Positions 3,790 through 54,400 are shown, counted from the first letter of the stretch. The stretch: DNA of 64,000 nt from Patescibacteria group bacterium (GCA_047637875.1 JBLJBH010000038.1:1969-65968), one strand, 5' to 3'. A program made the numbers and translations. The notes: a model not told the origin generated them from the sequence alone.

Positions 3790-3984
3790 ATGAATACTAC
3801 TAAATTTTCTCATTGGAGAGATGAATTAAAAAAGAAGCCACAGGCAGAACCAGTTATTCTTGATGGAAATACTGGAAAGATTTTATCTGAAAAACAAATT
3901 AATGATGAAAAAATTGCATCTCTTCGTGCAGCATGAGCATCTGATTTTGAAACTATATTTAGGGAAATATTTCGTCATAGATAG
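3790..3984 (+). CDS. hypothetical small protein (64 aa)
   Basis: Open frame ATG 3790 to TAG 3982-3984 with one in-frame TGA. No recognisable motif. The stop lies inside a hairpin (ATATTTCGTC..GACGAAATAT). Confidence 0.4.
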
Positions 3985-5814
3985 ACGAAATATTATGCCA
4001 TTATAGCTCAGTTGGTAGAGCGTTCCCATGGTAAGGGAGAGGTCACGGGTTCAATTCCCGTTAATGGCACCATTTATGTTAAAAAAAAAATCTAATCCCT
4101 CGTTAAGCTCTAATATAACAGACTTACGAGGGGTTATTTTTATGTTCAAAAACAGAATTTCATTAATTTTTCTCTTTTGAACATAAGAAGCCTTTTTATA
4201 GATAGCAGAGGCATTTCTTAGTAAATCAGTGATAACTTCATATTTAAATAAAATATCATTATTTTTTTGATTTACATTGTTTACTTCTGAATTTAAATCA
4301 TTTAAAACTTTTTCTATTTTCTTTTTTTCTTCTTGATAAATCGTTTCTTCATTTTCATCTCTCATTTTTCAAAGATTATTTTTAATAAAATCTTTTAATT
4401 TGTTTTCCATTTTTCAAATTTGTATATTTAACAACCTTTTTTGCTCTTTTATATCAAAATCCCCCCTATCAATTCTTTCTTTGATAAGGATTAACAAATT
4501 TCAATAATCTTCCTCTGTTATTTTTATTTTTTTCAGTAATTTTAAGATTTCTTTTTCTATTTCTTCGTATGTAATACTTAATTTTACTTGATTACAAGCA
4601 TATTTTATTTGATGTGGTTGAACTATATCTCAATAATCCAAATTATTATTTCCTGTTTGTTGTTTTAATTCTTTAAGTTTAGGAACAAATCTTTTTTCGA
4701 AATTAGGTAAAGTACAATTAAAATTATACTTTCCATCTTCTGTAATAAGCATTTCATTATGTATCGCCATTATATCATCAATATGTGGTTTTACTTTATT
4801 TTGTGTTCTTACCAATTTTCATTCTCAAACTCCTCATATTTGATATATAAGTTGAGTAAATTCATCTTCTGTAATAAGAGGTTCATAATAATCATTTTTT
4901 TCTCTTAAATCTACTTCCTGTTTTCAATAGACAAAAACTCAATAATAAAAAGAGTCTCTCCAAACTTGATAAAGTTTCGTATCCATAGCTTTTCACTCTC
5001 TTCATTTATCATTTTTAAATTCCCTTTTAAATCAATTATCATTTAAATATTCGGCAATTCTTTCATCACTTTCATTTTTTAATTTCATCATAAAAGCTTC
5101 TCTCATAAGAGGAAAATTAACAGGATGTGGCATATGATATCCTGTTTCCTCATCTATATAATACCCCATTTTATAAATTCAAACTGCTTTTCACTTTGCG
5201 TGAGCAGAATAACTTCATCTTGCACTATCTTCACTTAACTTATCTGAATATTGTTTTGAGAATACAAACCACATTCATAGCATCATTTTTCCACTTGCAT
5301 TATTTTCAAAATGGAAATTTGTATATTTTAAATCAACTTTTCATTCATCTACCAAATTGATAATCTCTCATCATTCAACCATATTTCTTGCTTGTCTATC
5401 TGGTGAATATGATAAAATTCATTTAATTTTTCAGGTTTTAATAAGTGAAATAAGTTTTAACCATTTTTTTCTTATTCCTGGTGTTTTTCAAGACTTTTGT
5501 TCTTCTATGATAAATAAATTTTGAGTTTTTTCTCTTAAAACTTCATCTTCGATAGTTTCAGTACTGGTTTTCTTTTTTAGTCAAAGAAATTCGTTTTCTT
5601 TAAAATCAAAATGAGAAAAAGTTGAGTTTTTTTCCATTAATTTGATATTATTAACCAAAGCAAAATTATAACAAACTCTAATTTGGTCTTCGATTGATTG
5701 CGTTTGTTTTCCTGATGCCTCATCTGTTGATTTTCTGACATAAATTACATATTCTATTTCTTCTATATTTTCTATTTTTTTGATTTTAGTTCTCGATGTT
5801 TTTGATATAACCAT
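3883..5814 (-). CDS. large serine recombinase (integrase of the element)
   Basis: N-terminus YVRKSTDEASGKQTQSIEDQ (catalytic Ser motif), SPDRQARN, then a recombinase and coiled-coil region. Recognisable body is 4054-5814 (587 aa), with many in-frame TGA. Under code 25 the frame reads through TGA at 4051-4053 and across the tRNA to TAA 3883-3885. This 56-codon tail is probably an integration artefact. Confidence 0.8.
3997..4072 (+). tRNA. tRNA-Thr (anticodon GGU), CCA encoded
   Basis: Hand-folded cloverleaf. Acceptor GCCATTA/TAATGGC, D stem GCTC/GAGC, anticodon stem TTCCC/GGGAG with loop ATGGTAA, T arm ACGGG-TTCAATT-CCCGT, discriminator A plus CCA. 76 nt. Confidence 0.9.
4051..4077. repeat. 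attL: left copy of the direct repeat (core 4053-4068 AATTCCCGTTAATGGC)
   Basis: 16/16 identical to 20566-20581. Identity is about 22/27 over 4051-4077 versus 20564-20590. Covers the T-arm and acceptor 3' strand of tRNA-Thr. Confidence 0.65.
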
Positions 5815-5940
5815 AATAAATATAAATTAAATTATAAATTGCTCATCATTATACATATTTTCATATAAAAGTATAGATAATTTAAAAATTTTTGTGTGTT
5901 TAGAATATGTGACAACATTTATTTTTTAATTTTCTTAAAA

Positions 5941-6510
5941 ATGTGAAAAATTAATAAAAATACTTTTAATATAAGGCAAATATTATTTATCTCTAGTTTA
6001 AGAGAAAATATATTTAGAGAGCAACTTTTTGTAAACAGTGAAATTGATTTGATAATTTATTATGATAAAGATATAAATGACTTTAAATTCGGTAAATTTG
6101 AGGATATTAATGGAAAAAATATCGAAGTTATTTATACTTTACCGTGGTGATATTCTAGGATAAATGAAACCGTAGATTTTTCAAATATGTATATGGATAT
6201 TTATATAGATTTTTGCTCTAGTTCAAAAGATGAAATAAAGAAAATATTGTCAAAAGAAGTAAAATTTAGCAATGAAGACTTTGAAAAGTTTTATATCGAA
6301 TTATTAAAATTAAAAGAAAAAGATTACTGAGATGATTGGCTGATTTTTTATATTTTTATTTCAGATTTAAGTGAAAAAAGTAAGCTTTTTGATAACTACT
6401 TCGATATAGTTCGCTTTAAAGAATATATGAGGCAAAAAATTGAAAGCAACGAGCTAAAAGATATGGAAGATATTGTTTTAAATTTTAGATATGAAAATGT
6501 GTTTTCATAA
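5941..6510 (+). CDS. hypothetical protein (189 aa)
   Basis: Continuous frame ATG 5941 to TAA 6508-6510 with TGA=Gly. No motif recognised. Confidence 0.5.
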
Positions 6511-6522
6511 TATTTAAAACTG

Positions 6523-6550
6523 AAAAAGACCTAATTTCTAGGTCTTTTTT
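6523..6550. terminator. bidirectional hairpin terminator (end of the hsd operon and of 5941-6510)
   Basis: AGACCTA-ATTTC-TAGGTCT flanked by an A-run and a T-run. Confidence 0.75.
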
Positions 6551-6551
6551 G

Positions 6552-7976
6552 CTATTTTATAATCTTTCTCAATTCGCTAACCAAAACTTTTATCTCATCA
6601 TCATTTTTTTCTATATTTTCAATGATTTCGAGTGGACTTCTTAAATTTTCTTCTTTCGCTTTATTTGGATTTTTTGCTGATAAATCAAAGTCTTTTATAT
6701 CTTCAACTTTTACAATCCACGAATTTTCTCAAACAACTCTATTTTTTAGTAGATTTGGAATTTCTTTTATTTCATCGTAAGTGATAGGCTTGTTTTTTGT
6801 CAAAGTTCTTCCAAGATTTATTTCATAATACCAAATATCTTTTGTACTTCAATTTCTATCAAAAAATATTATGTTTGTTTTTACTCAGGCATAAGGTAAA
6901 AATACTCAGGCAGGAAGAGAAATAATACTATGTAAATTAAAATCTTCTAAAATCCATTTTTTAACATCTCAAAAAGCATTTCCTGTATTAAATAACACTC
7001 ATTCTGGAATTATAACTCAAACTTTTCATCAAAGTTTAACACTTTTAAGTATATGTTGTAAAAATAGTATTTCTGTTGCATTAGTTTTAATAGGAAAGTT
7101 TATTTGAACTTGTGATTTAATTATTCATCAAAATGGTGGATTTGCTAATACAACATCATATCTATCTTTTTCTTGAATATCTTTTATATTTTGTGCTAAT
7201 GTATCTGTTTTCTTTATATTTGGATTTGGAACTCAATGTAAAATCATATTCATCACTCACATAATGTATGCAAGTGGTGTTTTTTCATTTCAAAAAAAGC
7301 TATGTTTTTGTAAAAAATCTAGTTCTTTATCATTTTTTTCTTGTGCATTCATATGATTAAATGCTTCGATTAAAAATCAACAACTTCAAGTTGCAGGGTC
7401 ATAAACAGTTTGTCATATTTTAGGTTCTAAAACATCAACTACTATTTTAATAATACTTCTAGGAGTATAAAATTCTCAATTATTTCATCAAGCATTTCAC
7501 ATTTCTTTTAACAAATCTTCATATACTTGACTCAATTCAAATAAATCTTCTTGTTTTTGAAAACTTAAAGAATTAACTATATCAATAACTTCTCTTATAT
7601 TATTTCAATCTTCAATTCTATTATTAATAAAGAAAAATACTTCTCATATTTTATACTTTATTGAAGAAAAGTTTTCGGTTGAATTTCTAAAAGATTTTAA
7701 ATAAGGAAACAAAGAGTTATTAATAAAATCTTTTAAATCATCTCCATTAATATATCATTTTTGTAAATTAATCCAGTTAGCCCACCTATATTTTTCATCT
7801 AAAATATAAGTATAATTTTTTCAATCTAAAAATGCTTTATCATTTTCAGTAGTTTCAAAATCATCAAGGAATTTTAAAAATAATATCCAAGATATTTGTT
7901 CTGTATAGGACATTGCTCAAGATATTCCAGAGTCAGTACGAAGAACATCTTTAATTCTTGAAATTTGTTGTTTCAT
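6552..7976 (-). CDS. hsdM: type I restriction-modification system, DNA methyltransferase subunit M
   Basis: 474 aa. GEFYTPR, DPATGSCGFL and NPPFGG motifs. Confidence 0.93.
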
Positions 7977-7978
7977 AT

Positions 7979-8833
7979 TTATTTTTTAAAAGATAAAATA
8001 AAGTCATATATTTCTTCAAAATCAAACGAGAAATCATTATTCAAAACTGGTTTTAAGTCTGTCTCAACTTGTTTTTTTAGATTTTCAAAGTTTTCCTCTA
8101 GTGTATATTTATAATCAACTTCATTCAATTTTATTTCAAGTAATTTTTTAAACTCTTTATCTTCAAAATCAAAATTTCAAAATTGCTTTACATACCAAAT
8201 ATCGAAAAAATCTCTAATTGCTGGAACTCATCTTGTAAGACTTGCTCTTAATTTTTCAGCTATTGCTTCTTTTAAATCAATACAATTTATAAAATGAGCT
8301 CAAAAAATATTTTCTTCTAAAACAACATCTTTAAAAAATGATTTAATTTCTCCTGAAAAAGGTTCAATATATAATTTATTTTTAAGTGAAATATCTATTT
8401 TTATAGTTTGAGTTGAATTATCTATAATTGAGTTATATTCAAAAGTAAACATAGCAAGTTTATAACTATCATATTTTGTTCTTTCTTCTCTTAAATTTAT
8501 TCATAAGATTTTTAAATCTTCTATAAAATTATTTTCATATTCTTTAAGTAATGTTTTTCTAGCTCTTGCTCATAAATCAGTATTTAAAACAAAATCTAAA
8601 TCTTCTGAAAGTCTAAAATATGGAAAATATACTTTATTTAAGCAAGTTCATCATTTGAAAATTAAATCTGGATATTTTTCTCAAAATTTTACCAAAATAA
8701 TAGTCAGTAAAAAATCTTTTTCTACTTTATCTAAGGGAAAATCTTTATTTGATTTTTTTAAAATATTTAGATAATCTTCTTTTGATAAATTACTATATTC
8801 TTTTAAAAAATTATTAATTTTTTTAATATACAT
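7979..8833 (-). CDS. abiEii: nucleotidyltransferase AbiEii/AbiGii-family toxin
   Basis: 284 aa. FKGGTCLNKVYFPYFRLSEDLDF matches the hallmark of the DUF1814/AbiEii NTase family. Stop is 2 nt before the hsdM start. Verified codon by codon. Confidence 0.8.
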
Positions 8834-9413
8834 ACTTTTTTATTTTATTATTTACAGTAATTGAAGCATATTTTTTTGCTAATTTTTCTAATTTATTTTT
8901 ATCAACTCAATATGGAAGATTATTAAAATCTTTTCCTTCTTTTATCATCTGAATAAAAGCTCTTTCAATAGTCATAATTTTATATGGGTATCATTCAAAT
9001 TTTTCATTTTTTATACCATAAAAAAAACTTTCTCTTTGTTTTACGAATATAAATTTAGAATTTCAAATAATTTTTTTTCAAGATTTTTTAGTATTATAAA
9101 TAGTTTGCCATTCTGCTATTTGTTCAGTTAAACTATATCTATTATAAATTCATAATCATCCAAATACATATACATCATCTCACATATACAAATCTCAAAC
9201 TACAAAAGAATTTATAATTGCTTTTGTTTTATTGTTTATGTATATTTTTCACTTTTTTATAGGAGTTAAGAGTTCTAATTTGCATAAATCTTTAATAGAA
9301 TAGTTTGGAGCAAACTTATCTAATATTTTTTGTAAGTATCCACTTGTAATATATGGTTTTGAATATAATTCAAGTTTTTCTCTTATTATTGCTATTTTAT
9401 TTACTTGTTTCAT
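8823..9413 (-). CDS. abiEi: putative AbiEi-like antitoxin / wHTH protein
   Basis: 196 aa. Overlaps the abiEii start by 11 nt, as cognate pairs often do. The N-terminal region looks like a wHTH. The call rests mainly on position. Confidence 0.55.
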
Positions 9414-9477
9414 AAATATTTTGTGTGTAGTAAAGTGGTAATATTATATCTTTTCATACCACAAATGCAAATATTTT

Positions 9478-10674
9478 TTACTCTTTCACCAATCTTCATT
9501 CAAAAGCATCTTTTAATAAACTTTGTTTTAGTTCTTCTAATTCTTTTAATTGTAATTCATATTTTGTTTTTAATTCTTTGTTTTTTGCAAATACTTCATC
9601 TAAATATGAAACAATTTCTTTTTGTTTTTCTAGTGGTGGAAGTGGGATTTGAAAACTTCTTAAATATCATAATCAAACAAATTTTTGAGTTGCTCAATTT
9701 GCTTCATTTAACATCTTTTTGATAACTAAATCTGATAATAAATAATACTTTAAAAACTCCATTATAATAATTTCATTTTTTTTCTTGAATAATGCCACAT
9801 TTTTAATTGCAAAATTTGGTTCAAAATTTACAATTGTAGGATTTCATATTGTTCAAATCATAGCAAACAACAAATCTCATTTATCAACTTTACTTCTTTT
9901 ATTTATATTTATATAATCATTTTCACTTATTAGTTTTACATTTGTTAAATCTATTGAATTATCTATCAAATTTTTTGAGGTCACAAGAGGAAATCATTCT
10001 TTAAAAAACTTTGGAGAGTCGTGAGTTCAATCTCTAACATCAAATATTTCTCATAATTTCTTCATTTCATACTCTCACTCACTAAAAACTTTTTCTAAAA
10101 CACTTTTGTTTAATTCTTCAAGATTTTTGAGATTTTCTTTTGTGAGATTTATGTTTTTATCTATGTTTTCAAAAGCTGAGTCTAGTTTTTGAACTATGAG
10201 TTTTTGGGTTGAAAGTGGTGGAAGTGGGATTGGAATTTGTTCAACTTCTTTGATTTGCAAATTTGCTATTCAAGTTGTTTTCTTGGAAAATATTCTTACT
10301 GTTTTTTGGGTTTTATCTGAATTATAAAAATAATAAAAATAATTATAATCTATAAAATCTTTTAATGGTCTAAAACAAGATATAAATCATCATAATGTTG
10401 CTTTATATCATAGATTTTCTATTAAACAGCATTTTCATAATAATTCTAAACTATTTGCACTAGAAATAAGTAAATCTCAATCTTGTAAAAACTTTTCTTC
10501 ATTTTTTACTATTGATTTATCAATATAAATTATATCACTCTCATCTAATTTTGTTTGGATATTTTTAGTTCTAAAACAAGCTAATCAAGTTTTTACATCC
10601 AAAATATCAGATGGTTTATAAGTTACTCATCTTATAGTTTTTACTATTTCTCAAAGTTTTTTTGTTGGGTACAT
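9478..10674 (-). CDS. hsdS: type I restriction-modification system, specificity subunit S
   Basis: 398 aa. Two target-recognition halves, each followed by the conserved IPLPPL..Q..I...LD helix region. In frame with track ORF 10075-10260. Confidence 0.9.
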
Positions 10675-10681
10675 AATTATT

Positions 10682-11653
10682 TTATTTCATTGTAATTAAA
10701 AATTCATATAATTTAATTCAAGAGTCTATTCATTTTGCTCATAAATTTTTATCTATCTTATTTAAATTTTTATGAACTATATTATTTCTTATTCATCTTA
10801 AAATGTTTATATTGATTAAATCTTCTTTATATTTTAAATAATTATTTTTTTCTAAAATCAATGGTAAATATGTATTTAATAAAAGATTAAAGGTTAATTC
10901 TAGCTCTAAATCTTTTATTTTTTTATTACTTAATCATATTTCATTAAATTTATTTTTAATAAACTCTCAAAATAATATTTCCAAAATAATACTTGCTTCT
11001 AATAATGAAAATCTATCTCAGAATAGAACTCTTGACTTTAATTTAATTAATTTCAAAATATTTTCCTCTTCTAAAATATTCATATTAGTTACTTTTCGCA
11101 TCTTTTCCCACTTTTCTTTTGTTAACAATACATCATCAGAATAAATAGAATTTATAGTTTTTTTATCTTTTGATATTTTTTTTATCTCTTCAAATTTTAT
11201 TTTTCTAAAATCAATTCAATCATTTGAAATTTCTAATTTATATCAATCAATTAAAGAAAAACTATTATTATTTAAAAAACTTCAAATATATCAGGTTCTA
11301 AAATTTAAATATTCAAAGTTTCATATTCTATAAAATAATAATGAAATTTTTTTTATAACTTTTTCATAGATTAAATATATTTTTTTTCAAGTTTCAATAG
11401 TGATATTTTCACCTAATAGTTCATTATATAAATTATCATCTCAATTTATAGTTATAATCATAAATTGAGATGGTGATAAATCAATATAACCATTTACAGG
11501 TTTTTCTTCTTTTTTTATAAAATAATTGACTTCATAATTATCTAAATTTATTTTCAAAGGATTTTTTTCTAATTCATCCGACCAATATGAAGTTCAAAAA
11601 TCGCACAATCATTCAAGAGATGGAATATTTATTCTTAAATATATTTTTTTCAT
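10682..11653 (-). CDS. hypothetical protein with a C-terminal HEPN-like R-x4-H motif
   Basis: 323 aa, verified codon by codon. C-terminal helical region ends with LRGIRNNIVHKN (RNNIVH = Rx4H). Lies 7 nt upstream of hsdS. Confidence 0.55.
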
Positions 11654-11670
11654 TTTTTTATAAAAAATAA

Positions 11671-13608
11671 TTAATCTGTAATAAAGTAGTGTTTATCTTT
11701 TTTAAATAAGTATAAAAATATAATATCATTAATTTTTTTTCTAAAAATAAAATTTTTTAGATGAACTCATAAAATAATATATAAGATAAGAAAGAAAAAA
11801 GATATAAAATATAAAATTCATTCCCATAAATCCCAATTTTTTAATATAGGTGGTATAATGAAAATAACAAATAAACTACACAAAATAATAAAAATAATAA
11901 ATGAAATAACCCACGATAATATTCAAGCAATTTTTATATTTTTATTTTTTAACTTTTCCAATATATCTTTATTTTTTCTTTGTTTTTCTTCTTCTAATTT
12001 TTTTTCAATTTCAGATTTATGTCATTTTTTTACTTCCTCTAAAATCTCATTATGAATTGTAATTTCTAAATTCTTTTTAGATTTATCAATATTTGTAAAA
12101 ATAATATTTTTATCTATTTTTTCTCAAACTGAAATTGTTAAAAGTTCATTTTTTATTTCATTAGAAGAAATCAAGAGTGCAAAATCTTCATCTGTAATTT
12201 CTTTTTTTTCAACCATTTCATAACACAAAGCATAAAAGTTATTCCAAACATCTTTATTTATTAATCAATATGAAGTTAGTCATACAAAAACTGTTTCTAA
12301 TGGAATATCACTAGACCAATCAGGTTTTTTTAACCATAGGTAATTACTAAGATAATCTGGCAATATTATATTTGGTATTTTTTTGAAAAAACTTTTTTCA
12401 TTTATTTTACAATCAGCATTAAATAATCTTTTATCAGAGGTTAAAAAAATATATTTTGATTTTTCTAATAATCTTGGTGAAGAACTTCACCTTAAAAATT
12501 TAATAGACTCAATTGCATAAATATCGTGTTTTTTTGAATGGCGGGGTTTATGATTTATTTCTTCCTCATAATCATCTTCATTATAATCTAATTTACTAGT
12601 TTTTTGTTCATAAATCTCTACTCAAAATTTTTGAATAAGTATATTTTCAATTTTATATGTTAATTGTAATATATCTGATGTACCATATCATAAATTTTTG
12701 AAATTTTGGTAAATAGAGGCAACATTATATCATTTAAAATATTTATCTTTTTCAGTTTGGAAATTCTCTAAAACATTTATTGTCTCATCAATAGTAAATG
12801 TAAAAACTTTTACAGATATTCCTCTTTTTTGCATTAATTCTAATAATTCAAACGATGATTTTTCAAGTTCTTTTCAATGTCATCAAATTAATGAGAAAAT
12901 AATATTAGTATCTAAAAAAACTGTTAATGAATTTAAATTATACTCATTATTCACATCTTTAATTAAATTTTCTTTTGTAATTAAAGAACAAAGTAAGGCT
13001 CAATATACAATATTTTTAATTAGATTTTTAAATTCTAAATTATTATTAAGTTGATTTACAACAAATCTTGAAATTCAAACCTTTAAAACATTATCAACTC
13101 AATCAAGTTTTCAATTGATATAACTTTTACTAAAAGGAGAAAAAAATTCAAAAAAATTATAAAAATTATTATTTATAATATCTTGTAATGTTTTATATAT
13201 TATATCATCTTCATATCTAATATTATTATCTTTATATATATATAATCTAATAGACTCAAAAAGTCTTTCTAACTCAAAATATATATCCTTATTTAAATCA
13301 ATTGAGTCAATTTTCTCTTTTTTTCATTTCTCTGTTAATTGAATTATATCAGATTTTTCGTCATAAATAATTTTATTTTGTTTATCAAGTTTTTTTAATA
13401 TGTCTTTAATTGTGAAATTTGGTATATTTAAATAATACCTATTCTTTATATCATTTTGAATTTTTTTTAATTTAGTTCAATTAATTATATCAATAGAATT
13501 CATAATAAAAGGAAAAAAAGTTTCAAGATAACTTTTCTTTCATTCATACAGTGTTTGCATCATTGAATAAGTATAAAAATCTCTATATCAAATCTTACTA
13601 TTAGACAT
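11671..13608 (-). CDS. PIN-like domain protein with two C-terminal transmembrane helices
   Basis: 645 aa, verified codon by codon. TVFLDTNIIFSLIG (PIN strand 1 Asp) and YIFLTSDKRLF (PIN T-x-D). C-terminal hydrophobic segments ILSWVISFIIFIILCSLFVIFII and ILYFISFFFLILYIIL. Confidence 0.55.
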
Positions 13609-13637
13609 AAAATAAAATTAAAAATTAAACGTTTCTT

Positions 13638-15962
13638 CTATTTAACATATAAACTCTTTTGTAACTCATAATAAGCATTTTTTAACTCCTGCATTCACCC
13701 GAAAGTTTCTGCAATTTCCCTTGGTTGACCTTGGTTAAAGAGAGCAATTTTACTTGCTAGTCCATCTTTTCTAAATTCTAAAATTCCATTTTTTACATAA
13801 AGTCCCAACAAAAACTCTAAAAATTCTTTCGCTTTTAGACTTTGGTATTTTTCCACTGTTTCCTCTCAATACTGAGACCTTTCAGCCCTAAATTTAATAT
13901 CACTGTTAAAAGATATATGAGCCAAAATATCAAAAATATCAGACTTTTCAGCTTCAAACATCTTTTTTAAATCTTCCAGTTGCTCACTATCAAGTCAAAT
14001 ATTTGCTAAATTTTGAAGTAATTCTTCTCTGGTTTCAGGATTAGACCATAACATCCTGAGTTGATGTTCATCCTGGTAAATACTTGGTAAATCTCCAATA
14101 ATTCTTTTTAAAAAATCATTTGAATTTAAATGTTTCCCAGTCGTTGGGTCAAGATATCTCGTCTCAATATCAATAACTTTTACTTCTCTATTTGGTGCGA
14201 GTTTTACCACTAATCTTTCTTTTTTTTCAAAATCATTTTCTTTCGTATCTGTTGGGAAATCTTTTTTGGTATTTGGTCTGTATTCTTCTTTTTTTACTTC
14301 TACTTCATTAGATAAATCCTCTTCTGGTCATCCATCCCAAAGTTCATCACTAAAATCATTAGTAGCTCCAACAAAATCATAAATAGTGAAATAATCTTTT
14401 CCATCAAAAAGTCTTGTTCCTCTTCAAACAATTTGTTTGTACTCTACAATACTTCCAATATTTCTAACGAGTATAATATTTCTTACATTGAGTGCATCCA
14501 CTCAGGTAGTCAGCATTTGAGAGCTTGTTAAAATCACTGGAATATCTTTATCGTTGTCCTGAAATCTTTCGAGATATTTTCTTCATATTTCTCCTTCGTT
14601 ACTCGTCACACGAACACAATAATCTGGGTCTTTTACTTCTTTATACTTATTTATACTGTCTCTAATTCTCAGTGCGTGACCTTGGTCTACACAGAAAATA
14701 ATAGTTTTATCCATTTTGTTTATTTGTTGTAATATCGTTTGAGCAATTAAATCTGACCTTTCATCGATTATAATCTCTCTTTCCATATCTTTTGTGTAAT
14801 ACACTTCTTTTTTTATTTCTCACGAAACGACTTTATCTCAACTATTTAAAACTAATTCATCAATATTAAGTTTAATTCTTTTGATTTTAAACGGAGTCAG
14901 AAATCAGTCATCTATTCAAGTTTTTAGTGAATATTCATAAATTGGATTTCAAAAATACTTGTAAGTATCAACATTATCATTTCTTTTTGGTGTTGCCGTA
15001 AGTCCGATATGAACAGCAGAGTCAAAATATTTCAAAATCTCAGCCCAATTTCCGTCTTCTCTAGCTCATCATCTATGACATTCATCAATTATGATAGCAT
15101 CAAAAAAATCCCTATCATATCTATTGTAATAGGCTTCTAGTGTTTCACTAGGGTCATCTTCTGATACTCATCCTGCCAAAGCTTGATAAATAGCAAAGAA
15201 AATATTTGCGTTCGTTGGAACTTTTCATCATCTTTTTTTGATTTCAGTTCCGTTGATTTTGATGATATCTTTTTCCAAAGGATTAAAAGTATTCATTGCT
15301 TGGTCTACAAGGATATTTCTATCAGCCAAAAATAAAATTCTTGGTCTTCTCACTCATATACCATCTTTCGACCATCTTGCATTGAATAGTTTATAAACCG
15401 TTTGAAATGCAATAACGGTTTTACCAGTTCCAGTTGCAAGAGTGAGTAAAATCCTATTTTTTCAGTCTCAAATAGACTCCATTATCTTATTTATAGCAAT
15501 CTCTTGATAATATCTTGGTTTTCTTTCTGATAAATAAAATGGTTCTTGGAGTAAAGTTTCTTTTGTTTGATTGATTTCAGAAAATACTTTATTATAGAGT
15601 TCTTCTGGTGTTGGATAATTATCGATGTAATCACCTTTTCCAGTTTTTAGGTCAAATTCATAGGTTCTTTTTCAGTTTGATGAATATACAAATCTTAGAT
15701 TTAAAATACTCCCATATTCTTTTACTTGCTCTAAACCTTCTGTTGGTTCTAAACCTACCTTTTTAGCTTCAATAATCGCTAATTTTACTCATTTATAAGT
15801 CAAAACATAGTCAGCAAATTTTTGCTTTCCTCTTTTTCCTCAAAGCCCAATCCTTCCATCAGTAAAAGAATGTTCTCTGATGATATTGATATCATTCCAA
15901 CCATTATTTTTTAGTTGTGGGTCTATATAATTTGCTCTTGTATCGCTTTCTGAATATGACAT
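13638..15962 (-). CDS. hsdR: type I restriction-modification system, endonuclease subunit R
   Basis: 774 aa. LATGTGKT, IIIDECHRG, GLTATPKR and QIVGRGTR helicase motifs, plus an N-terminal nuclease region. In frame with track ORFs 13995-14210 and 14583-14804. Confidence 0.93.
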
Positions 15963-16046
15963 TTTTTATTAATTAAACAATATGAAATATATTTTGTTTA
16001 TTATAAGAAAAAAGTATTTTTTTCAAAATAAATTGATTTTTGGCAT

Positions 16047-16088
16047 AAAAAAGACCTCTAAGAATGTATCTCAGAGGTCTTTTTTTTA
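16047..16088. terminator. bidirectional hairpin terminator upstream of hsdR
   Basis: AAGACCTCT..AGAGGTCTT with an A-run on one side and a T7 run on the other. Confidence 0.7.
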
Positions 16089-16260
16089 CTTATTGGAGTT
16101 GGAAATATACCATCTTACCATATATTCGATGGTTTTACTTCTTTGAAGCCTAGAATAATATGGTCAATATATCTTTTTACTCTCACTATCAATCTTTCAC
16201 AATAAATTTTCGTCCACATTTAAACTAATCTTTTTCTTAATTCAAAACATAATATAAAAA

Positions 16261-16479
16261 TTATAAGGTAAAATTGTCATTTATTGAGATTTTCTCTCCG
16301 TTCCTTAATCAGGAAACTTTGTAATTTATCACAATTTTTCCATTTTGATTGAGTTTACTCACCAAATTGATATTAAAACTTCACAAGTAAAAATATTTAC
16401 TTATATCTATTAAAATCTTATTCACTTCCTCTTTAGTCAAGACTCTATTGGTTCTTGCAACATTATTCATATTTCCCAT
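16261..16479 (-). CDS. hypothetical small protein (72 aa)
   Basis: ATG (complement of 16477-16479) to TAA with two in-frame TGA. No motif recognised. Confidence 0.35.
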
Positions 16480-16597
16480 AATTATAAAAATTAAAAAATA
16501 AAAAGCTTTCGCAAAAAGAATACACACTTCCATTTTCGGTTCTTTTTTTATGATTTATCTATGTTTTTAATTCAAAAATACCAAATTAGGTATCAGA

Positions 16598-16716
16598 TTA
16601 GGTATAAATGTAGTATTACATTTATATTATTAAATATCGGTATAAAAATAGGTATTGAGTTAAATGATGAACTTAAGTGGTGACATCGGTGCAAATGTAG
16701 TATTACATTAATATTA
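16598..16716. repeat. two ~30-bp direct repeats with an identical 17-bp core AAATGTAGTATTACATT, plus GGTAT iterons
   Basis: Cores at 16606-16622 and 16693-16709 (87 bp apart). Each core is itself an inverted repeat, AATGTA-N4-TACATT. (A/C)GGTAT recurs four times between 16587 and 16655. Confidence 0.55.
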
Positions 16717-16860
16717 CAGTGATACTAATTTTGAAAAACTTTTGATTTTTTTTTAATATAAATTAAATTTAGTCACTTAAAAAAAGAAAATAAAAACGAA
16801 AAAAGTTTCTTTTTAATTTTTATTAAAATATATAAAAATTTAATATTTTCATTCTTCTCA

Positions 16861-16900
16861 AAAGACCTACTTAGAAAAATCTCAAAGTAGGTTTTTTTTT
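16861..16900 (+). terminator. orphan plus-strand hairpin with T9 run upstream of the rep gene
   Basis: ACCTACTT..AAGTAGGT followed by TTTTTTTTT. No plus-strand ORF precedes it. Confidence 0.6.
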
Positions 16901-17046
16901 GGTTATCAATTTTTTCATAAAACTACCAATAATAATAAAAAGCTCTATTTAATAAGTAAAACTAGGATTTTAAAAAATACGATATTCAGTGTGATACCAA
17001 ATATGTGTGTTGTTTCTTGTAGTTTATTTTTTAACCACATATAATT

Positions 17047-18804
17047 ATGAAAAACTGCAAGAAAGGTGATGCTACTTTAAGTATCGAAAATAATGCTAAC
17101 TACATTACTGAAAGAAGAATAAATCCTGAAGATTGTATATTATTTGTCAAAGATATGCAAACTGATGAATTTAGTTATATCGAGGAAAAATATATTACCT
17201 CTCAGATTGAGAATAATAATTTATATTTTCTTGTTAATTGATATTTGTTATGAAAAAGAAATGAGTCAAAATTGAGAAAAATATATGCTCTATGATTTGA
17301 TGTTGATACTTTAAAAGAATGAATAAGTGATAACGAATTATTCACTAGATTAGAAGAAATCGAAGAAGAATATTGATTAAGAGCTCATATAATCAATAAG
17401 ACTGGATGATGATATCATATTTATTATTTAATGGAAAAAACACCATATTTACCATTTAAAAAAGAATTTGATAAAATTTACGAAAGATTAATGAAGGATT
17501 TATCTGCTGATGAGGATTTTAGCTGGAAGGTAGGAATATTAAAAGTAGTTTGATGATATGATTTTAGAAGAAAAACTTGGATTATAAATATAAGAAATGA
17601 GTTTCATAATAATTATAAAATTACTGATTTTAATAAAATTACTGGAGATGAAGTATTTAAAAAATATGAAAAGATGAATTTTTCAGATGAATTTAGAAAA
17701 ATAGATGAGGAAGAGTTGAATTTGAAAAAAAGAATTAACAGTTATGTTTATAAAATAAATGATATTCCTTTTCCTATTATTTTAGAAAAATTAAATCAAA
17801 TATGATTTAAAATTACTATAATAAATAATAGAGTTCATATTGAAGGGAATGAATGACACGCAAAAGCATTATATTATCACGATAATACTGAAAGAGTTGT
17901 TGATTATGCGAGAAAAAATAGAATAAAAATATGAGAAACATCAAGAGGCTGAAATTATGGATTTTTATATTATATTTTTTCTATAGCAGACTCATTGAAA
18001 AACAAGGATTTGGAAGTTATTAAAGATAAAAAACTTATAAAAGATGAAATCAGGAAATTTGTTTGAAAATATTTTAATATCTACTATAGAAATCCAGATA
18101 ACTATATCAATACAAACAAGTTGATTTACAATGAATTTTTAAATGGAAAAGTAAGTTTTGATGAAATGGATAAAAGTTTTTTACTTGAAAATAATATCAT
18201 CAATAGTAATTATAAACTTTCTAGTATTTCAAAATTTGTATTATTAAATATTTTGAAGTGAAGCGAAATAGATATGAGCTGATATTTTAAGAATAAAACT
18301 ATTTATGAATTATTATCTTCCTCATCATTAAAGGAAAGTAATATAAAAAAACAAAATAAAAAATATAAATTAGTATTATTATGTTTATCAAAAATATATA
18401 AGGATATTTGCACTATCTCAAAAGATACTGAGAAAATAAGAGTTTTTTTGATTTCTGATTTAATTGAAGAAAATTATAGATTTTCATTCACTTTACTTAA
18501 AAATTACTTTAAACTTCAAAAATTTGAAAAATATATTTATAGAGGTATTTATATCTGATTTATTAATAACAAAAAACTAAATATTGAGAAACTAGATTTA
18601 TATTTTTACTTATTAAATCGTATTATTAATAAAACTGAAAAAATTAGCCTTGAGAGAGTATTAAAAGAGTTTTGATGACAAACATATCTAACAAATAAAA
18701 GTCTTTCTAAAAGTAATATTATTCGTGATATAAAGATATTTAAAAGCTTTCTAACGACTACTAATAGAAAGATAGATATTTGAAAAGATATGATTGTTTT
18801 TTAA
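17047..18804 (+). CDS. putative replication protein with an N-terminal AEP primase-polymerase-like domain
   Basis: 585 aa, verified codon by codon. ALGFDVD (D-x-D motif I) and KTGGGYHIYYL (G-x-G-x-H motif II). Confidence 0.6.
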
Positions 18805-18997
18805 AAAAAAGAAAGTGGAAATTAGTTTATATTTTTAGATAAAAAAGTAGAAAAATGTTTATATTATTTTACTTGATTATCCTCTTATTATAGACAGAAG
18901 TAAGAGAACTATTTATTCCAATATAAAAGAAAGAGGTTGATATATTTATAAATATCACTATTACTTATATAACATTTTATATTCTAATTAAAAAATT

Positions 18998-19459
18998 ATG
19001 ACAAAAATAATTGATATTATTGAAACAAATACATTTAAGGAGTTAAAAGAAAGAAAAATAAATTGAGAAGAATGAATTATATTTTATGATGACGAAAATA
19101 TATACTCTCCAGATGATGAATTAATTGAATGGCTAATAATTAATCCTGAAAATCCTGAACGCTATACATATCGTTATATATTAAAAAGCTCAATTCTCGG
19201 AGAAGAAATAGAAAAAGCTACTACTAAAAAATATTGAAAATATTGTAGCTGGAATAGTAACTTATATTCTGAAACGAAAGATAAAATTTACAAAGTATTT
19301 TATGATGATGAATTATATGAAAATGAAAAGGAAAATGAATATATAGAAATTATAAAAAATGCTAATAAAAAATTGGAAGATATAAAATATGCATATTCGT
19401 ATGAATGAAGTGAGACTTATAATATAGATTATTATTTTAAATTAAGTGATTTTTTATAA
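18998..19459 (+). CDS. hypothetical protein (153 aa)
   Basis: Continuous frame with TGA=Gly. No motif recognised. Confidence 0.55.
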
Positions 19460-19538
19460 TAAAAACTTAGCGACTCATAAATAAACAGTGTGTTAATAAA
19501 TGTAGACTTCTACATTTTATTTACTAACTTTTTATATT

Positions 19539-19997
19539 ATGAGTAAAAAAGACATTACTATTACTGAAATAACAGAAAATTACTTTTTACGTGAGAATAA
19601 AAAAATTAAGATTGTATTCAGCTATGACTACTTTCAAGACTTTATCCAAAGAAATTGACTTGAGGAAATTTTCCTAAAAAAACTTCATTTAGAATGATTT
19701 GACTTTGACATTGTAAAAATATCAAACCTAGATTTTAATCTTGATTTGGATAATACCGATTTTATTAATAAATTAAGAAATTATAAAGACCACTATATCT
19801 CAGAATGATTACTCTACTTGGGGAATGATAAGTCAAAAAGATATTGATTTTTCTTTTTTCCTGACTATCTAAAAAACTGAGAAATGAAAAATGATTTTTT
19901 AAAAATAAAAAGCACTGAAAATATTGATTTAACTGAATATGCAACTTTTAATTGATTGTATAACAGGGCTGGTGTTGTAATAGCATTAAAGATATAA
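19539..19997 (+). CDS. hypothetical protein (152 aa)
   Basis: Continuous frame with TGA=Gly. No motif recognised. Confidence 0.55.
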
Positions 19998-20010
19998 GAG
20001 TAATACGATA

Positions 20011-20051
20011 AAAAAGAGACTATTGGACTAAAATCCAGGTCTCTTTTTTTT
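20011..20051 (+). terminator. rho-independent terminator
   Basis: AAAAGAGAC..GTCTCTTTT followed by a T-run. Confidence 0.75.
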
Positions 20052-20128
20052 GTGCTTATTTTTTTAAAAACAATTTTAGCCCCAATTTGTGTGTATTCCT
20101 TTGTATTTTATTTTTTAACAATTTATAT

Positions 20129-20272
20129 ATGAAAAAAATACAAAGAGAACAAACATTAGCAACTACTAACAGCAATAAAGTTAGTGAAAATATACCTAAT
20201 AAAAAAGAGGTTAAAAAAGATTATAATAGACTGCTTGATTTAGTATTAGCATTAGATGAAATCAAAAAATAA
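20129..20272 (+). CDS. hypothetical small protein (47 aa)
   Basis: Internal ATG of track ORF 20087-20272. Weak. Confidence 0.3.
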   Translation: MKKIQREQTLATTNSNKVSENIPNKKEVKKDYNRLLDLVLALDEIKK

Positions 20273-20563
20273 TTATAAATACTTTTTAAGCAACTTTTCA
20301 TCATATTTTTTTCAAATAAAATCCATATTGAAATAAATAATACTTTTAAATAGAGAAAATTTAACTTTAGAAATTGCCAAAAAAAGTTGTTCAAAAGTTA
20401 CTCAAATCGATGCTCCATTTCTGAAATTTAGAAAAAAGTTATAGAAACATCTATAGCTTTTTTTGTGTAAAAGAAAAGGGAATTAAATGGAGGTTTTTTA
20501 TGAAATAAAAATAAAACTGCGATGAATAAGAACAATTTTAACGGATGACCGACCCGAAGGGCG

Positions 20564-20590
20564 TTAATTCCCGTTAATGGCTTCATTTTA
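20564..20590. repeat. attR: right copy of the tRNA-Thr 3'-end repeat (core 20566-20581)
   Basis: AATTCCCGTTAATGGC is identical to 4053-4068. Upstream AGGGCGTTAATT is a degenerate copy of the T arm. No tRNA 5' half is present. Confidence 0.65.
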
Positions 20591-23913: not shown

Positions 23914-24768
23914 ATGTGATATTGAAAAACAATTACAACTTATTTAGTTGATGGTAGTTCAACATGAATTAAAACAGTTGAGTTATCAAACTGGGTATGA
24001 AAAGCAATAATTATACCTAGGCAAAAACTAAAAGAAGCAAAAGATAGAAATGAAGTTTTACAACCTGCAATTTATTTTCTTTTTTGAATTAATGATGATT
24101 GAAATTGATTAGCATATATTTGAGAGGCTGAGAATCTTATAAATAGAATTTGAAACCATGATACAAATAAAGATTTCTGGGATGTGGTTATAGGATTTAT
24201 TTCAAAAGATAATAATTTAACTAAGGCTGATGTTAAATATTTAGAAGCAAAAGCCATTGAGAGAGCTAAAAAAGTAAATAGATTTGTTTTACAAAATTGA
24301 GTTGAGCCAATTCCTAATAATCTACCTGAATATCAATTGGCTTCAATGAATGAATTTTTAGATAATATAGATTTATTAATTTCTGCAATTTGATATCCTA
24401 TTATTAAAGAAATAAAAGAAAATTTCTCAAAAAATAATATTTATTTCTGTAAATGACCTAATGCTGATGCATTTTGATTTTATACGGATGAATGATTTTT
24501 GGTACAAAAATGATCAAAGGTTAGAAAACAGACAACTTTAACTGCATGAAGTTGGATTAATTGAATACAGAAAAAATTATTAGAAGAAAAAATATTAGAA
24601 TATTTATCTGATGAAGAATTAATTTTCTCTGTAGATTATTTATTTAATAGTCCTAGTGCTTCAGCATGATTAATTTTATGAAGAAGAGCTAATTGATGGT
24701 TGGAGTGGAAAAATAAAGAATGAAAAAGTTTAGATGAAATTGAGAGAAGAAATTTAAAAGATATCTAA
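23914..24768 (+). CDS. GIY-YIG nuclease-family protein with a DUF4357-like C-terminus
   Basis: 284 aa. N-terminus TYLVDGSSTGIKTVELSNWVGKAIIIPR, then IYFLFG..GLAYIGEAENLINRIGNH (GIY-YIG core). Confidence 0.7.
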
Positions 24769-51436: not shown

Positions 51437-51454
51437 ATCAGTGTTTTATTTTTT
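51424..51454. terminator. bidirectional terminator (tsaD and the S8 protease)
   Basis: AAAACACTGA-TAAA-TCAGTGTTTT. Confidence 0.8.
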
Positions 51455-54400
51455 CTTTTTTAATTCTTGGTTTAATTTCTTAATAGAATTTTTTAGTAAA
51501 ATAACTTGTTTATTATAATTATTTTTCAATTTAGTTGTTTTTTCTTTAGAATTATTTAATTCATATTTTGCAATTAAAAAATTATTTAAATTATTTACAA
51601 AATTTTTCTTAAAATTTTCATCTAATTTTTTATAGTTTATTATAGCTTTTGAAATTTTCTCAACTTTTTTACTTAAACCATATCAATCATATCTTACTAA
51701 AGCATATCAATTATATTCAATAACTTCTTTTTTTATTACTTTCTTTTCATTAGTTGTTATTTTATTTTCTTGAATAGTATTATTTTGAGTTGGTTGAATA
51801 TAAAAACTTCATCATCCTCCTCAACCTCCTCATCAAGATGATGAATTATTTGTAGTTTTAGGAACTTCTTGCATAAAAGCAAAATGAGAAAATTTTGTAG
51901 TTTCAAATTTACAAATAGAGTTACTTACAATACAACTTGTTAAGAATTCAAAGCTTTTTTGGTTATCTCAAGATCTATAAATTTTTAAAGTTTTTCAATT
52001 ATAAATACTTCAAATATTTAAACTTACTTCAACTTTTCATCAAGAAAAAATTAAATTATCTTTATCAGATCATATTTTAAAAGTTAAATTATTTATTCTT
52101 GTATATCAGTTTATATTTAAAGTTCAACTAGATGTAACTTTTTCTGGAGATTTAATCACTCAATCCCAGCTTCAACTTTGGGTTTTTATTTCTAATCAAT
52201 TAGTATTTATTTTTATATAATTACTATTATCTGTTTTTAAAATAATTACTCAAGTTTGAGTAAAAACTACTCAAGAACTTGTTGCATCTACTATATTTGT
52301 AGTTCAAGTTAAACTATATTCTCAAGAAATATTTGATTCTAGAAAAAATGGAGTTTTAAAACTTCAAGTATTTGATGTTAATGATTCAAATCAATTATTA
52401 ACAAAATAAGCTTTATAATAATAAGTAGTTTCAGGTAAAACTGATATCTCTAAACTTTCTGTAGTTTGTGTTCATCAAGTTAAAGTATTGTTTAAATCTC
52501 AAGTTCCATAAAGTATTACTCAAGTTCAGATAAATTCTTTAATTAAATTAAATTTTAATTTTCAAAAAGATAATTCGCTATTTACTATAGGGGATTTTCA
52601 AATACGAATAATTTCTTTTGAAACACTTCCAGTATTTCAAGCTTTATCTATAGTATTAAAAATTATATTATTTATTCAAGGTATTAAATTAATTTCTTTA
52701 GAAAAAGTTCCATTTGTATTTAAAGAAACATTTTGTGAATTTATAGTTAAAATATCATTATTTAATTCATTTACTTTCCCCGAAACTATAATAGTTCCAG
52801 AAGAAAATTTATCGTTATTTTCTATATTAATGTCTTCAAAAACTGGATTTGTTGTATCTAAAATAATACTTCCAGTTAATGTTTTTGTATTTTCATTTTC
52901 ATCAGTTATTTTTACTGAAATATTTTTTATTCAATCATCACTATTTATATTTATATCTAATGTTTCTTGAGAAATTAAACTTCAAGTTATTGATGATAAT
53001 ATATCTCAACTAATTAAATAAGTTCAAGTTTTAGTTGATGAAAAATTTATTTTTGTTATAGGGTTATTTGTGTAAGCTCAACTTAAAAAATTTAATTCTC
53101 AATCTGGATTTAAATCAAAATAAATGTTTTGAGAAGAAATTAATCATCAAGTACTATTATTTAATAATTGTGTATAAACTCAGAAGTTATAAAATCAAGT
53201 TTTATTTATATTTACTCAAGTTAAGAATTTATTTTGAGTATTTTCAGTAAGTAAAGTTTCTCAACTTCAATTTTTTACATTTAAAATATATCAACTAAAA
53301 ATATATGGATTTGTATCATCTGACCATTCAATATAAGGTGTAGAAGTTTTTGATAAAGTTGTTATTTCTTGTTGTTTAGTATTATCAGTATAAATTTTTA
53401 TATTATTTATATTTTCTACTTTAGCTAAATTTTGTAGAGTAGAATGTACATTAATTTTTTTTCAGGTGATTGTTTTTCAGTTTAAAGAAGTCATATCATC
53501 TCAAGAATTTAAAATAGCATTTTTTATATCTAAATAATTCAAATCTTGTCTATAATTCCAAGCTAAACTTGCTAATCAAGTAACATGAGGAGTTGCCATA
53601 GATGTTCAATTTGAAAATTGATATAAATGATTTCTCATATAATACATATAAATATTAGGGCTTACATTACATCATTCTGCTACATTTAAATCATTTCATG
53701 ATACCCAATTAAATCTAAATTTAAAATTTGATGTTTTGTATTCATCAGTTATTTCGAAACTATCAACTTTAAAACTATCTCAATTTCCATTATATCTAGT
53801 TATTTCTTCATACGTATTTCCTCAATCCTTTGAAAAAAGAAGTCTTAAATAATCGGCTCAATTATTATTTGTAGGTAATTTACATTCTGTAAGATATTTT
53901 ATATAAAGTTTATTTCAAAGAGGTAATGATGATAAGTCAAAATTTATAGAGTCAACTTTAAAATTACTATTTTGAGCATATGGATTATTCATATCTGGGT
54001 AAATATCATAATATACTCAAGGCCGTAAAGTATCACCTATTCACCAATTTCAAACAGCTCAAGTCAAATAATCTGGTAATACTAATCAAGTAGATGAATA
54101 AGAGTATAAACTTCAATCTAAAATATCAACTCAAGAATTATCTATATAAGTTGATAAAATATCACTTCATGGAGCTCAAATATGTACGCTTCCACTTCAA
54201 TAATCTGAAAAATAAGATATGCCTCAAGTATTATCTATCGATGCAACAGATATAATATTATCAAGTCAGGGAACTGATAAATTTCAACAACTAAAATCTT
54301 CTCAAAATCAAGCTGGGAAAAATCTATTTGTAGGATCTTCATGATTTTTTGTTCCATTTCAAGCAGCTGCAATAAATAATCATCAAACACTTTTAAAGTC

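Follow-up and report, generated by a model that had tools for sequence, protein, structure and literature searches.

Can a serine recombinase carry an island into the 3' end of a tRNA gene, and if it does, which bases does it exchange? The question is raised by a locus in 64,000 nucleotides (nt) of a Patescibacteria group bacterium (GCA_047637875.1 JBLJBH010000038.1:1969-65968), a stretch that we call the window. In it, a gene for tRNA-Thr(GGT) is followed by some 16 kb of DNA in which a gene for a large serine recombinase (LSR) adjoins the tRNA and a type I restriction-modification (R-M) system lies farther in. Genomic islands classically land in tRNA and tmRNA genes, and this niche is attributed to tyrosine integrases. 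We consider it quite likely that the segment is a 16,345-bp non-viral defence island of a Gracilibacterium that uses genetic code 25, inserted by its own LSR into the end of the acceptor stem of tRNA-Thr(GGT).

Junctions of the tRNA-Thr island

ARAGORN places tRNA-Thr(GGT) at 3997-4072 on the plus strand, with an Rfam score of 71 bits; it is the single RNA gene that these tools find in the window, and it is intact after integration. A scan of species-representative genomes with the tRNA's 3' end brought up four contigs from Gracilibacteria/Patescibacteria metagenome-assembled genomes (L001 to L004). In each, the ribosomal gene block is followed by an identical tRNA-Thr and this in turn by the MarR region; the 16-kb segment is absent from 4 of 4. 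The island-free site in four relatives proves, as far as genome comparison can, that the segment is an insertion at the 3' end of tRNA-Thr. An integrative island in this place had been proposed in the original prediction, made from the sequence of the window without database searches, and the empty sites that it called for are present in the related genomes.

The position of the two ends is given by relatives that share the host flanks and by relatives that share the element. The alignment of L001 and L003 to the window reaches 4068 and resumes at 20412-20414, from where it takes in a spacer and the second copy of a 16-bp repeat that is taken up below. At the left end, homology to the host (L001 to L004) reaches 4068, and homology to the element, followed from the right, reaches 4066 in contigs L005 and L006. 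These two have the same left end of the element joined to tRNA-Phe(GAA), and their LSR genes are 92% and 80% identical to that of the window in protein, and 93% and 87% in DNA over 2.3-2.4 kb. At the right end, homology to the element (L090 and L093 to L095) ends at a GC dinucleotide or at a shared CCATTT, and homology to the host (L001 and L003) begins there. In L090, which is 86-91% identical, the match of the right end to the window breaks off at 20422, some 143 bp short of the second 16-mer. Four independent right ends (the window, L090, L093/L094, and L095) share a P arm of the form GTTCAAAA.T..CTCA.A.C.ATGC followed by N-CCATTT; beyond that point each continues into a different host flank that has its own terminator, which adds three further host contexts for the element.

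At the left attachment site (attL), the crossover dinucleotide is GC at 4067-4068, positions 71-72 of the tRNA, within tcccgttaatg-GC-accatttatgtt. At the right attachment site (attR), it is GC at 20412-20413, the end of the mobile unit, within ctcaaatcgat-GC-tccatttctgaa. The base 5' of GC is the G of the host at attL (4066) and the T of the element at attR. The base 3' of GC, which is tRNA position 73, is the A of the element at attL (4069, as in L005 and L006) and the T of the host at attR; native tRNA-Thr has T at position 73 in 4 of 4 relatives. Since the reciprocal swap of both bases is explained by exchange within GC and no extra assumption, the crossover is, on these alignments, confined to the 2-bp GC at tRNA positions 71-72, and the mobile unit is 4069-20413, or 16,345 bp. 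The island had earlier been drawn from 4069 to 20565; its right end has to be moved to 20413, 152 bp inside the start of the right repeat at 20566. Exchange of 2 bp without flanking homology is the signature of a serine recombinase. After the crossover GC, both junctions have an imperfect 7-bp match, (A/T)CCATTT, and the sequence GCWCCATTT is found at only two sites in the window, both at the junctions.

As read from these junctions, recombination joined the attachment site of the element (attP, ..GTTCAAAAGTTACTCAAATCGAT-GC-ACCATTTATG..) to that of the host (attB, ..GGTTCAATTCCCGTTAATG-GC-TCCATTT..) within GC. The excised circle is predicted to have an attP junction with ..CTCAAATCGATGC next to ACCATTTATGTT.., and the restored attB junction is predicted to have ..CCCGTTAATGGC next to TCCATTTCTGAAATTT... 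Of the tRNA, nothing but discriminator, CCA, and terminator is replaced, by an A73-CCA and a strong hairpin terminator that the element supplies. Positions 1-72 of the present tRNA-Thr are host sequence, and the discriminator A73 with the CCA (4069-4072) is derived from the element. The replacement terminator is a hairpin with a U-run at 4093-4136 on the plus strand, antisense inside the coding region of the recombinase, with −19.8 kcal/mol and z = −4.5, followed by UUAUUUUUAU; it is conserved in L005 and L006. One side effect on the tRNA is that integration turns its discriminator from U73, as in 4 of 4 relatives, into A73.

The P arm, GTTCAAAAGTTACTCAAATCGAT at 20389-20411 on the plus strand, gives an indication of how the sites may be recognized. 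Conserved in the four independent right ends, it opens with GTTCAA 17 nt from the crossover, and in L095, the most diverged copy, conservation starts sharply at this GTTCAA. The same hexamer occurs in the T-loop, where it ends 12 nt from GC in attB, compared with 17 nt in the P arm. Its chance of occurring is about 4e-4 at one given offset and about 1% at any offset in the arm. We infer that, on the B side, the LSR recognizes the T-loop and acceptor region of the tRNA gene (tDNA). In work on LI integrase and its attP, the motif for the zinc-ribbon domain is reportedly displaced 5 bp outward in attP relative to attB half-sites. By analogy with that model, the 5-bp shift of GTTCAA (17 versus 12 nt) might be hypothesized to have the same origin.

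The recombinase and its relatives

The LSR open reading frame (ORF) is 643 amino acids (aa) in the integrated form and is encoded at 3883-5814 on the minus strand, at the attL end and convergent with tRNA-Thr. Pfam matches it to Resolvase (PF00239, E = 9e-18) and Recombinase (PF07508, E = 1.8e-10). The conserved protein ends near residue 581 (about 4072), and the last 62 codons or so cross attL and run antisense through the tRNA; it is because the frame has no TAA or TAG before 3883 that the integrated ORF comes to 643 aa. In the reconstructed circle, the ORF would be 628 aa with a different C-terminal tail. A switch upon excision to a TAA stop directly behind the core, considered at one point, came from an attP built on the 16-bp core; the corrected attP gives the 628 aa and no neat stop-codon switch. 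The ORF is intact and uses TGA at the rate of the host.

The catalytic serine lies in a YxRKS motif, of which R27, K28, and S29 are invariant in 24 family sequences. The structural model of a homolog, P0006, has a predicted local distance difference test (pLDDT) score of 80.9; it has a catalytic domain, a long aE helix (153-186), an alpha/beta recombinase domain, and a predicted coiled coil (helices 410-456 and 463-509) inside a beta-rich C-terminal domain. A Foldseek search with this model has as its top 12 Protein Data Bank (PDB) matches only large serine integrases, several of them bound to att sites, with E values down to 3e-14 and sequence identities of about 10-16% across the aligned regions. 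By sequence, the LSR profile had no match in the PDB, though the fold comparison matched. Pfam Zn_ribbon_recom has no match in the LSR, and the region holds only 2 cysteines as read from the sequence, so binding of zinc by the C-terminal domain appears doubtful. Taking profile matches and modeled fold together, this is a bona fide large serine recombinase, in line with what had been said of the gene abutting the tRNA-side end. No second recombinase, including the tyrosine type, was detected among the scanned island ORFs with Pfam, PHROGs, PADLOC, or NCBIfam. Because it is the only recombinase detected aboard, and because of the geometry of its family, the LSR is very probably the integrase of the island.

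That geometry, which weighs most in the argument, was taken from 53 metagenome loci in which the LSR gene is complete at its 3' end. The family has 297 homologs, which come mostly from Gracilibacteria or from sources annotated 'gcode 4'. A convergent tRNA or tmRNA gene is found at the 3' end of the LSR in 43 of the 53 (34 by ARAGORN, to which Rfam adds eight tmRNAs and one truncated tRNA), and most of the remaining loci meet a contig edge there or have a T-arm that is recognized by eye. The 3' end of the RNA gene falls at the equivalent of LSR residues 580-587 in 42/42 loci, and the LSR ORF enters the RNA gene by 12-173 nt in 41/41 that could be scored. The targets in the metagenome loci are tRNAs for Ala, Arg(CCT), Arg(TCG), Gln, Glu, His, Ile, Lys, Met, Trp, and Val, or 11 kinds, and tmRNA; with Thr and Phe from the lineage of the window there are at least 13 tRNA kinds in all, and tmRNA genes account for at least 13 family loci. 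The family was not found in IMG/VR and is essentially absent from GenBank phages.

As these alignments have it, the clade shares one geometry at the ends of tRNA and tmRNA genes. A wider statement can be put forward tentatively, as a possibility that we hold open more than one that we expect: that the clade belongs largely to TGA-recoded Gracilibacteria-like bacteria and is specialized on tRNA and tmRNA, that its members read the universally conserved T-loop, through the hexamer GTTCRA, at a fixed distance from a crossover at 71-72, that relatives hop between tRNAs, and that their tails differ between integrated and excised forms. The hopping is suggested because 92%-identical enzymes sit in tRNA-Thr and in tRNA-Phe. 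Being mostly in TGA-recoded hosts, the genes of the clade are likely fragmented by gene calling with the standard code; the group is large and apparently undescribed.

Several members of the family have arrangements of their own. In L017 (4698-5005), the LSR is followed by a 3' fragment resembling tRNA-Met, with a complete tRNA-Met 231 nt beyond, which possibly reflects a tandem or accreted array, or else a displaced fragment used as integration site. In L088 (5456-5600), the LSR P0006 adjoins only a tRNA 3' fragment of about 35 nt, with T-arm, acceptor, and CCA, on a 21-kb contig of small ORFs whose large ORFs have no PHROG matches. We considered this fragment as a possible natural attP; its GTTCAA spacing is of the B type (12 nt). 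L085 (1095-7998) is a member integrated at ssrA that carries an RVT_1 reverse transcriptase, a small resolvase-type serine recombinase, a helix-turn-helix (HTH) protein, and a C5 DNA methylase. In L086, a single CCACCA 2.6 kb from tRNA-Lys was a candidate attR; it did no better than chance and was not used.

The specialization of the family on tDNA is the more interesting result. A serine integrase family fills the tRNA/tmRNA niche, with at least 13 tRNA kinds and tmRNA as targets and a crossover of 2 bp resolved to the base. Serine integrases work without host factors, and short att sites suffice for them; for this reason a family whose targets are the near-universal 3' ends of tRNA genes could be a source of integration tools, including for bacteria of the Candidate Phyla Radiation, which have very few genetic tools.

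Alternative readings of the locus

Three other accounts of the locus have to be weighed. The original prediction took the 16-bp direct repeat AATTCCCGTTAATGGC (4053-4068 and 20566-20581) as the recombination core bounding the island, in the style of SCCmec and its Ccr recombinases. The repeat itself holds up: it is exact and non-random, with no other copy in the window even when 2 mismatches are allowed and 0 expected. Moreover, in L002 and L004 the tRNA runs straight into the sequence to the right of the second copy, as that account would have it. However, in L001 and L003, whose match to the window extends leftwards from about 20479, a spacer of about 145 nt separates tRNA-Thr from GGGCGTTAATTCCCGTTAATGGC-TTCATTTT, so that both 16-mer copies are present and the island is absent. 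Their spacer is homologous to 20414-20565, and together with the second copy it aligns to window 20414-20581 with 133/168 identical columns in L001 and 126/168 in L003. Related elements have right ends that stop at 20413-20422, not at 20565, and the bases that differ on either side of GC agree with a crossover at 4067-4068 and 20412-20413. Because both 16-mers are there in relatives without the island, the repeat is, by this comparison, the flank of an older scar that predates the island, and not its att core, and we give a core of 16 bp almost no credence. The likeness to SCCmec that had been drawn from the repeat goes with it. The scar is some 165 bp long and lies outside the island, at 20414-20581 on the plus strand. 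It contains the native tRNA tail TCCATTT with its terminator, the spacer, a T-arm in degenerate form, and, at 20566-20581, the second 16-bp copy; it is present in 3/5 related genomes, extending over about 162 nt from the end of the tRNA in L001 and L003 and being missing from L002 and L004. It is bounded by a repeat of 16-23 bp that begins in the T-loop, which looks like the classical pattern of a tyrosine integrase, and the scar looks like what an almost fully decayed classical island (of tyrosine type?) has left behind, or else like a miniature element. The general caution is that an exact repeat of a tRNA fragment near an island need not mark the boundary of that island. A narrower alternative keeps the same island and the same LSR and moves the crossover into CCATTT, to a non-palindromic CC, CA, or TT, with a host that natively had A73 and a P arm that in this copy had T. 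GC-N-CCATTT is common to the four right ends and the three left ends, so that sequence identity reaches that far, and a non-palindromic core fits the polarity of canonical LSRs better than GC does. That reading needs two coincident polymorphisms, with A73 in this host where 4/4 relatives have T73, and T in the P arm of this copy where 3/3 related elements have A, whereas the GC crossover explains both bases without extra change. We regard it as unlikely, although less so than either of the other two.

The remaining account has the island as an immobile relic, with the LSR a resolvase, an invertase, or a decaying gene unrelated to the island's arrival. An excised form was not seen in viral contigs or in the fetched loci, and the LSR ORF has an odd read-through tail. 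Set against these are the intact ORF with TGA at the host rate, the invariant placement of LSR and tDNA in 42/42 family loci, which is hard to explain without a functional link, and the failure to detect an alternative integrase among the scanned island ORFs. Recent mobility is implied by copies in tRNA-Phe and in three other host contexts, with DNA identities of 87-93%. A relic of this kind is in our estimation very improbable. The preferred reading, of an island inserted by its own LSR at GC, has difficulties that should be stated as well. GC is palindromic, and in the canonical LSR model a palindromic core dinucleotide would not fix orientation. Two GCWCCATTT matches turn up in 12% of shuffles, so the pair is not significant by itself, and the argument from this motif is one of position. 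The corrected attP junction with GC was not found in viral contigs or fetched loci, and no excised circle was seen there; the earlier attP searches of metagenome and viral contigs used the junction with the 16-bp core and are uninformative for that with GC. Sites resembling the P arm, with GTTCRA-N17-dinucleotide, were not found in L085 or L086, and the offset rests on one element lineage. These points count against the insertion mechanism as we have it, and are taken into account in calling it quite likely.

Gene content, host code, and known systems

Next to the LSR and divergent from it is an ORF of 189 aa (5941-6510, plus strand) with no family matches. Its block is shared with L005 (in part) and L006 at 87-93% nt identity, with an ORF of the same length only in L006, and we name it as a candidate regulator or directionality factor. 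Then there is the R-M operon on the minus strand, beginning with the methyltransferase gene hsdM at 6552-7976 (Pfam N6_Mtase, E = 2.7e-60, and HsdM_N). It is followed by a gene for an AbiEii nucleotidyltransferase toxin at 7979-8833 (Pfam E = 8e-28, PADLOC E = 1.2e-37) and one for the AbiEi antitoxin at 8823-9413 (PADLOC E = 1.2e-10), which are adjacent with an 11-nt overlap (8823-8833). The specificity subunit gene hsdS is at 9478-10674 (Pfam Methylase_S, E = 2.4e-31, in two stretches), and the restriction subunit gene hsdR is at 13638-15962 (Pfam ResIII, E = 8.7e-41, with EcoEI_R_C and HSDR_N). The type I system is complete in having HsdR, HsdM, and HsdS, with AbiEi/AbiEii nested in the operon; the type I system with extra toxin-like genes that had been called from the sequence is borne out by Pfam and PADLOC.

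Between hsdS and hsdR, at 10682-13608 on the minus strand, there are two ORFs without family matches, ORF323 (10682-11653) and ORF645 (11671-13608), the latter with C-terminal transmembrane helices. L093 to L095 keep hsdS and hsdR (87-89% nt identity), an ORF of 570-585 aa, and the ORFs of 152 and 47 aa, and have other contents in this place, a KAP NTPase and other ORFs in L093 (366-4621), and Abi_C with DUF8370/8371 in L095 (1455-4672). L093 is part of contig JACFNZ010000006.1. Since the related elements differ just between hsdS and hsdR, the R-M operon is, on this comparison, one that holds a swappable cargo slot. The island illustrates how defence genes travel in bacteria with genetic code 25, in this case as a type I R-M operon with such a slot. 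As a separate observation, hsdR is an outlier in composition, with GC of 0.306 when other island genes have about 0.17-0.25, and with TGA as 43% of its Gly codons when most island genes have 60-100%; an ORF at 16261-16533 is also low at 40%. The composition hints that hsdR is of different or more recent origin.

The right end of the island is on the plus strand. An ORF of 585 aa (17047-18804) belongs to the conserved backbone and has only 5 homologs. It had been labeled an AEP-primase-like gene, a label that finds no support in Pfam, PHROGs, PADLOC, NCBIfam, or the PDB by single sequence or by profile; its AlphaFold (AF2) model, at pLDDT 39.5, is too poor for a fold search. FDVD and GGGYH motifs with a resemblance to DxD/GGxH are there by eye only. 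An ORF of 153 aa (18998-19459) has no family matches and is absent from L090. The ORFs of 152 aa (19539-19997) and 47 aa (20129-20272) are conserved right-end backbone with 11 homologs, in the same order in L090 and L092 to L095. L089, a Logan contig of SRR27295040, matches window 16507-19822 with 100% identity. The module of 585-, 152-, and 47-aa ORFs may serve replication or regulation. In L092 (794-9249), homologs of the three are linked to a different LSR, which suggests that the backbone swaps integrases. L092 was looked at as an unintegrated attP form and rejected, its LSR being of a different family with 26% identity in the catalytic domain and a CxxC ribbon.

Outside the island, the window is ordinary chromosome, with genes for rpoA, L17, L13, S9, S12, S7, and L27 to the left of tRNA-Thr, and a MarR gene and then a sugar-nucleotidyltransferase to the right of the island, much as the first description of the flanks had it. 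The long-ORF content of the window, whose GC is 24%, goes from 12 kb with translation table 11 to 79 kb when TGA is not a stop. All 7 of the 7 TGA codons in S12 align opposite Gly in E. coli S12, and island genes have TGA at conserved Gly sites, such as the NPPF-GG of HsdM; the TGA codons opposite Gly in S12 and HsdM make the code of the host, as read from alignment, code 25 with TGA as Gly, and not code 4. TGA takes a share of 71% of Gly codons within the island and 67% outside, GC is 0.232 inside and 0.254 outside, and codon-usage divergence is small. By these measures, the island is fully adapted to code 25 and is recoded as much as its host; the adaptation had been claimed before the comparison was made. 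Two chromosomal proteins are noted in passing. One of 284 aa with DUF4357 is encoded at 23914-24768, about 3.3 kb to the right of the island among small hypothetical ORFs, and the other is a secreted subtilase of 1322 aa (51446-55414) that makes heavy use of TGA for Gly, having 100 in-frame TGA codons and a run of nine Gly.

How does this island compare with systems already described? In the literature, for which our coverage is incomplete, we found no described LSR clade with a broad tRNA range, and no such mobile elements in code-25 bacteria. According to the Islander paper, integrases of the serine family are not known to have tRNA genes as targets (PMC4383910). The only exceptions to the tyrosine-integrase rule that we found are the ssrA islands of Dehalococcoides and an LSR minority among the tycheposons of Prochlorococcus. 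The tycheposon work counts 27 of 937 with an LSR in place of a tyrosine recombinase (bioRxiv 10.1101/2020.12.28.424599). Tycheposons are likewise small islands associated with tRNAs, and combine an integrase and replication-type genes with cargo for defence or adaptation; they differ in host phylum and genetic code, and we found no junction-level description of the LSR minority.

The Dehalococcoides islands come closest. Their LSR, DsiB, is CcrB-like and is accompanied by a small recombinase, DsiA; insertion is at the T-loop, with a 20-bp repeat, and attL lies inside dsiB (McMurdie et al. 2011, PMC3146451). By description, they resemble the island of the window in having the LSR gene at the attL end, a non-conjugative island, the 3' end of a tRNA-like gene as target, and variable cargo. 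The att site inside the 3' end of the LSR gene is common to both, and many members of our family are at ssrA; the second small recombinase in L085 recalls DsiA. The Dsi islands use only ssrA, whereas the targets here are at least 13 tRNA kinds and tmRNA. In place of a 20-bp repeat and the T-loop, the crossover here is at acceptor positions 71-72 with essentially no repeat, and instead of DsiA and other module genes there is no second recombinase among the scanned island ORFs.

With the classical tDNA islands, as sorted by the sublocation scheme of Islander and Williams (PMC4383910), our island shares a regenerated tRNA, an adjacent integrase gene, variable cargo, and frequent switching of tRNAs. 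It departs from them in using a serine and not a tyrosine enzyme and in its 2-bp crossover, from which it follows that no displaced tRNA fragment is left at the far end. By the Islander definition, one would look for such a fragment, but the true attR shares only GC-N-CCATTT with the tRNA, and the 16-bp fragment is outside the island and older. SCCmec with CcrAB is similar as an island driven by serine recombination at the 3' end of a conserved housekeeping gene; it differs in having a CcrA/CcrB pair (or CcrC) where there is a single LSR here, in having rlmH and not a tRNA as target, and in direct repeats of about 15 bp, against 2 bp plus 6 bp at the true junctions of our island. With the phage LSRs of phiC31, Bxb1, and LI/A118, the enzyme has in common its domain architecture and fold, a predicted coiled-coil insert, the 2-bp crossover, and the short att sites without extended homology. 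It stands apart from them in having 2 cysteines, as read from the sequence, in place of the four-cysteine zinc site of the C-terminal domain, an apparent core that is a palindromic GC, a non-viral element to move, a tDNA target, and an ORF that crosses its own att site.

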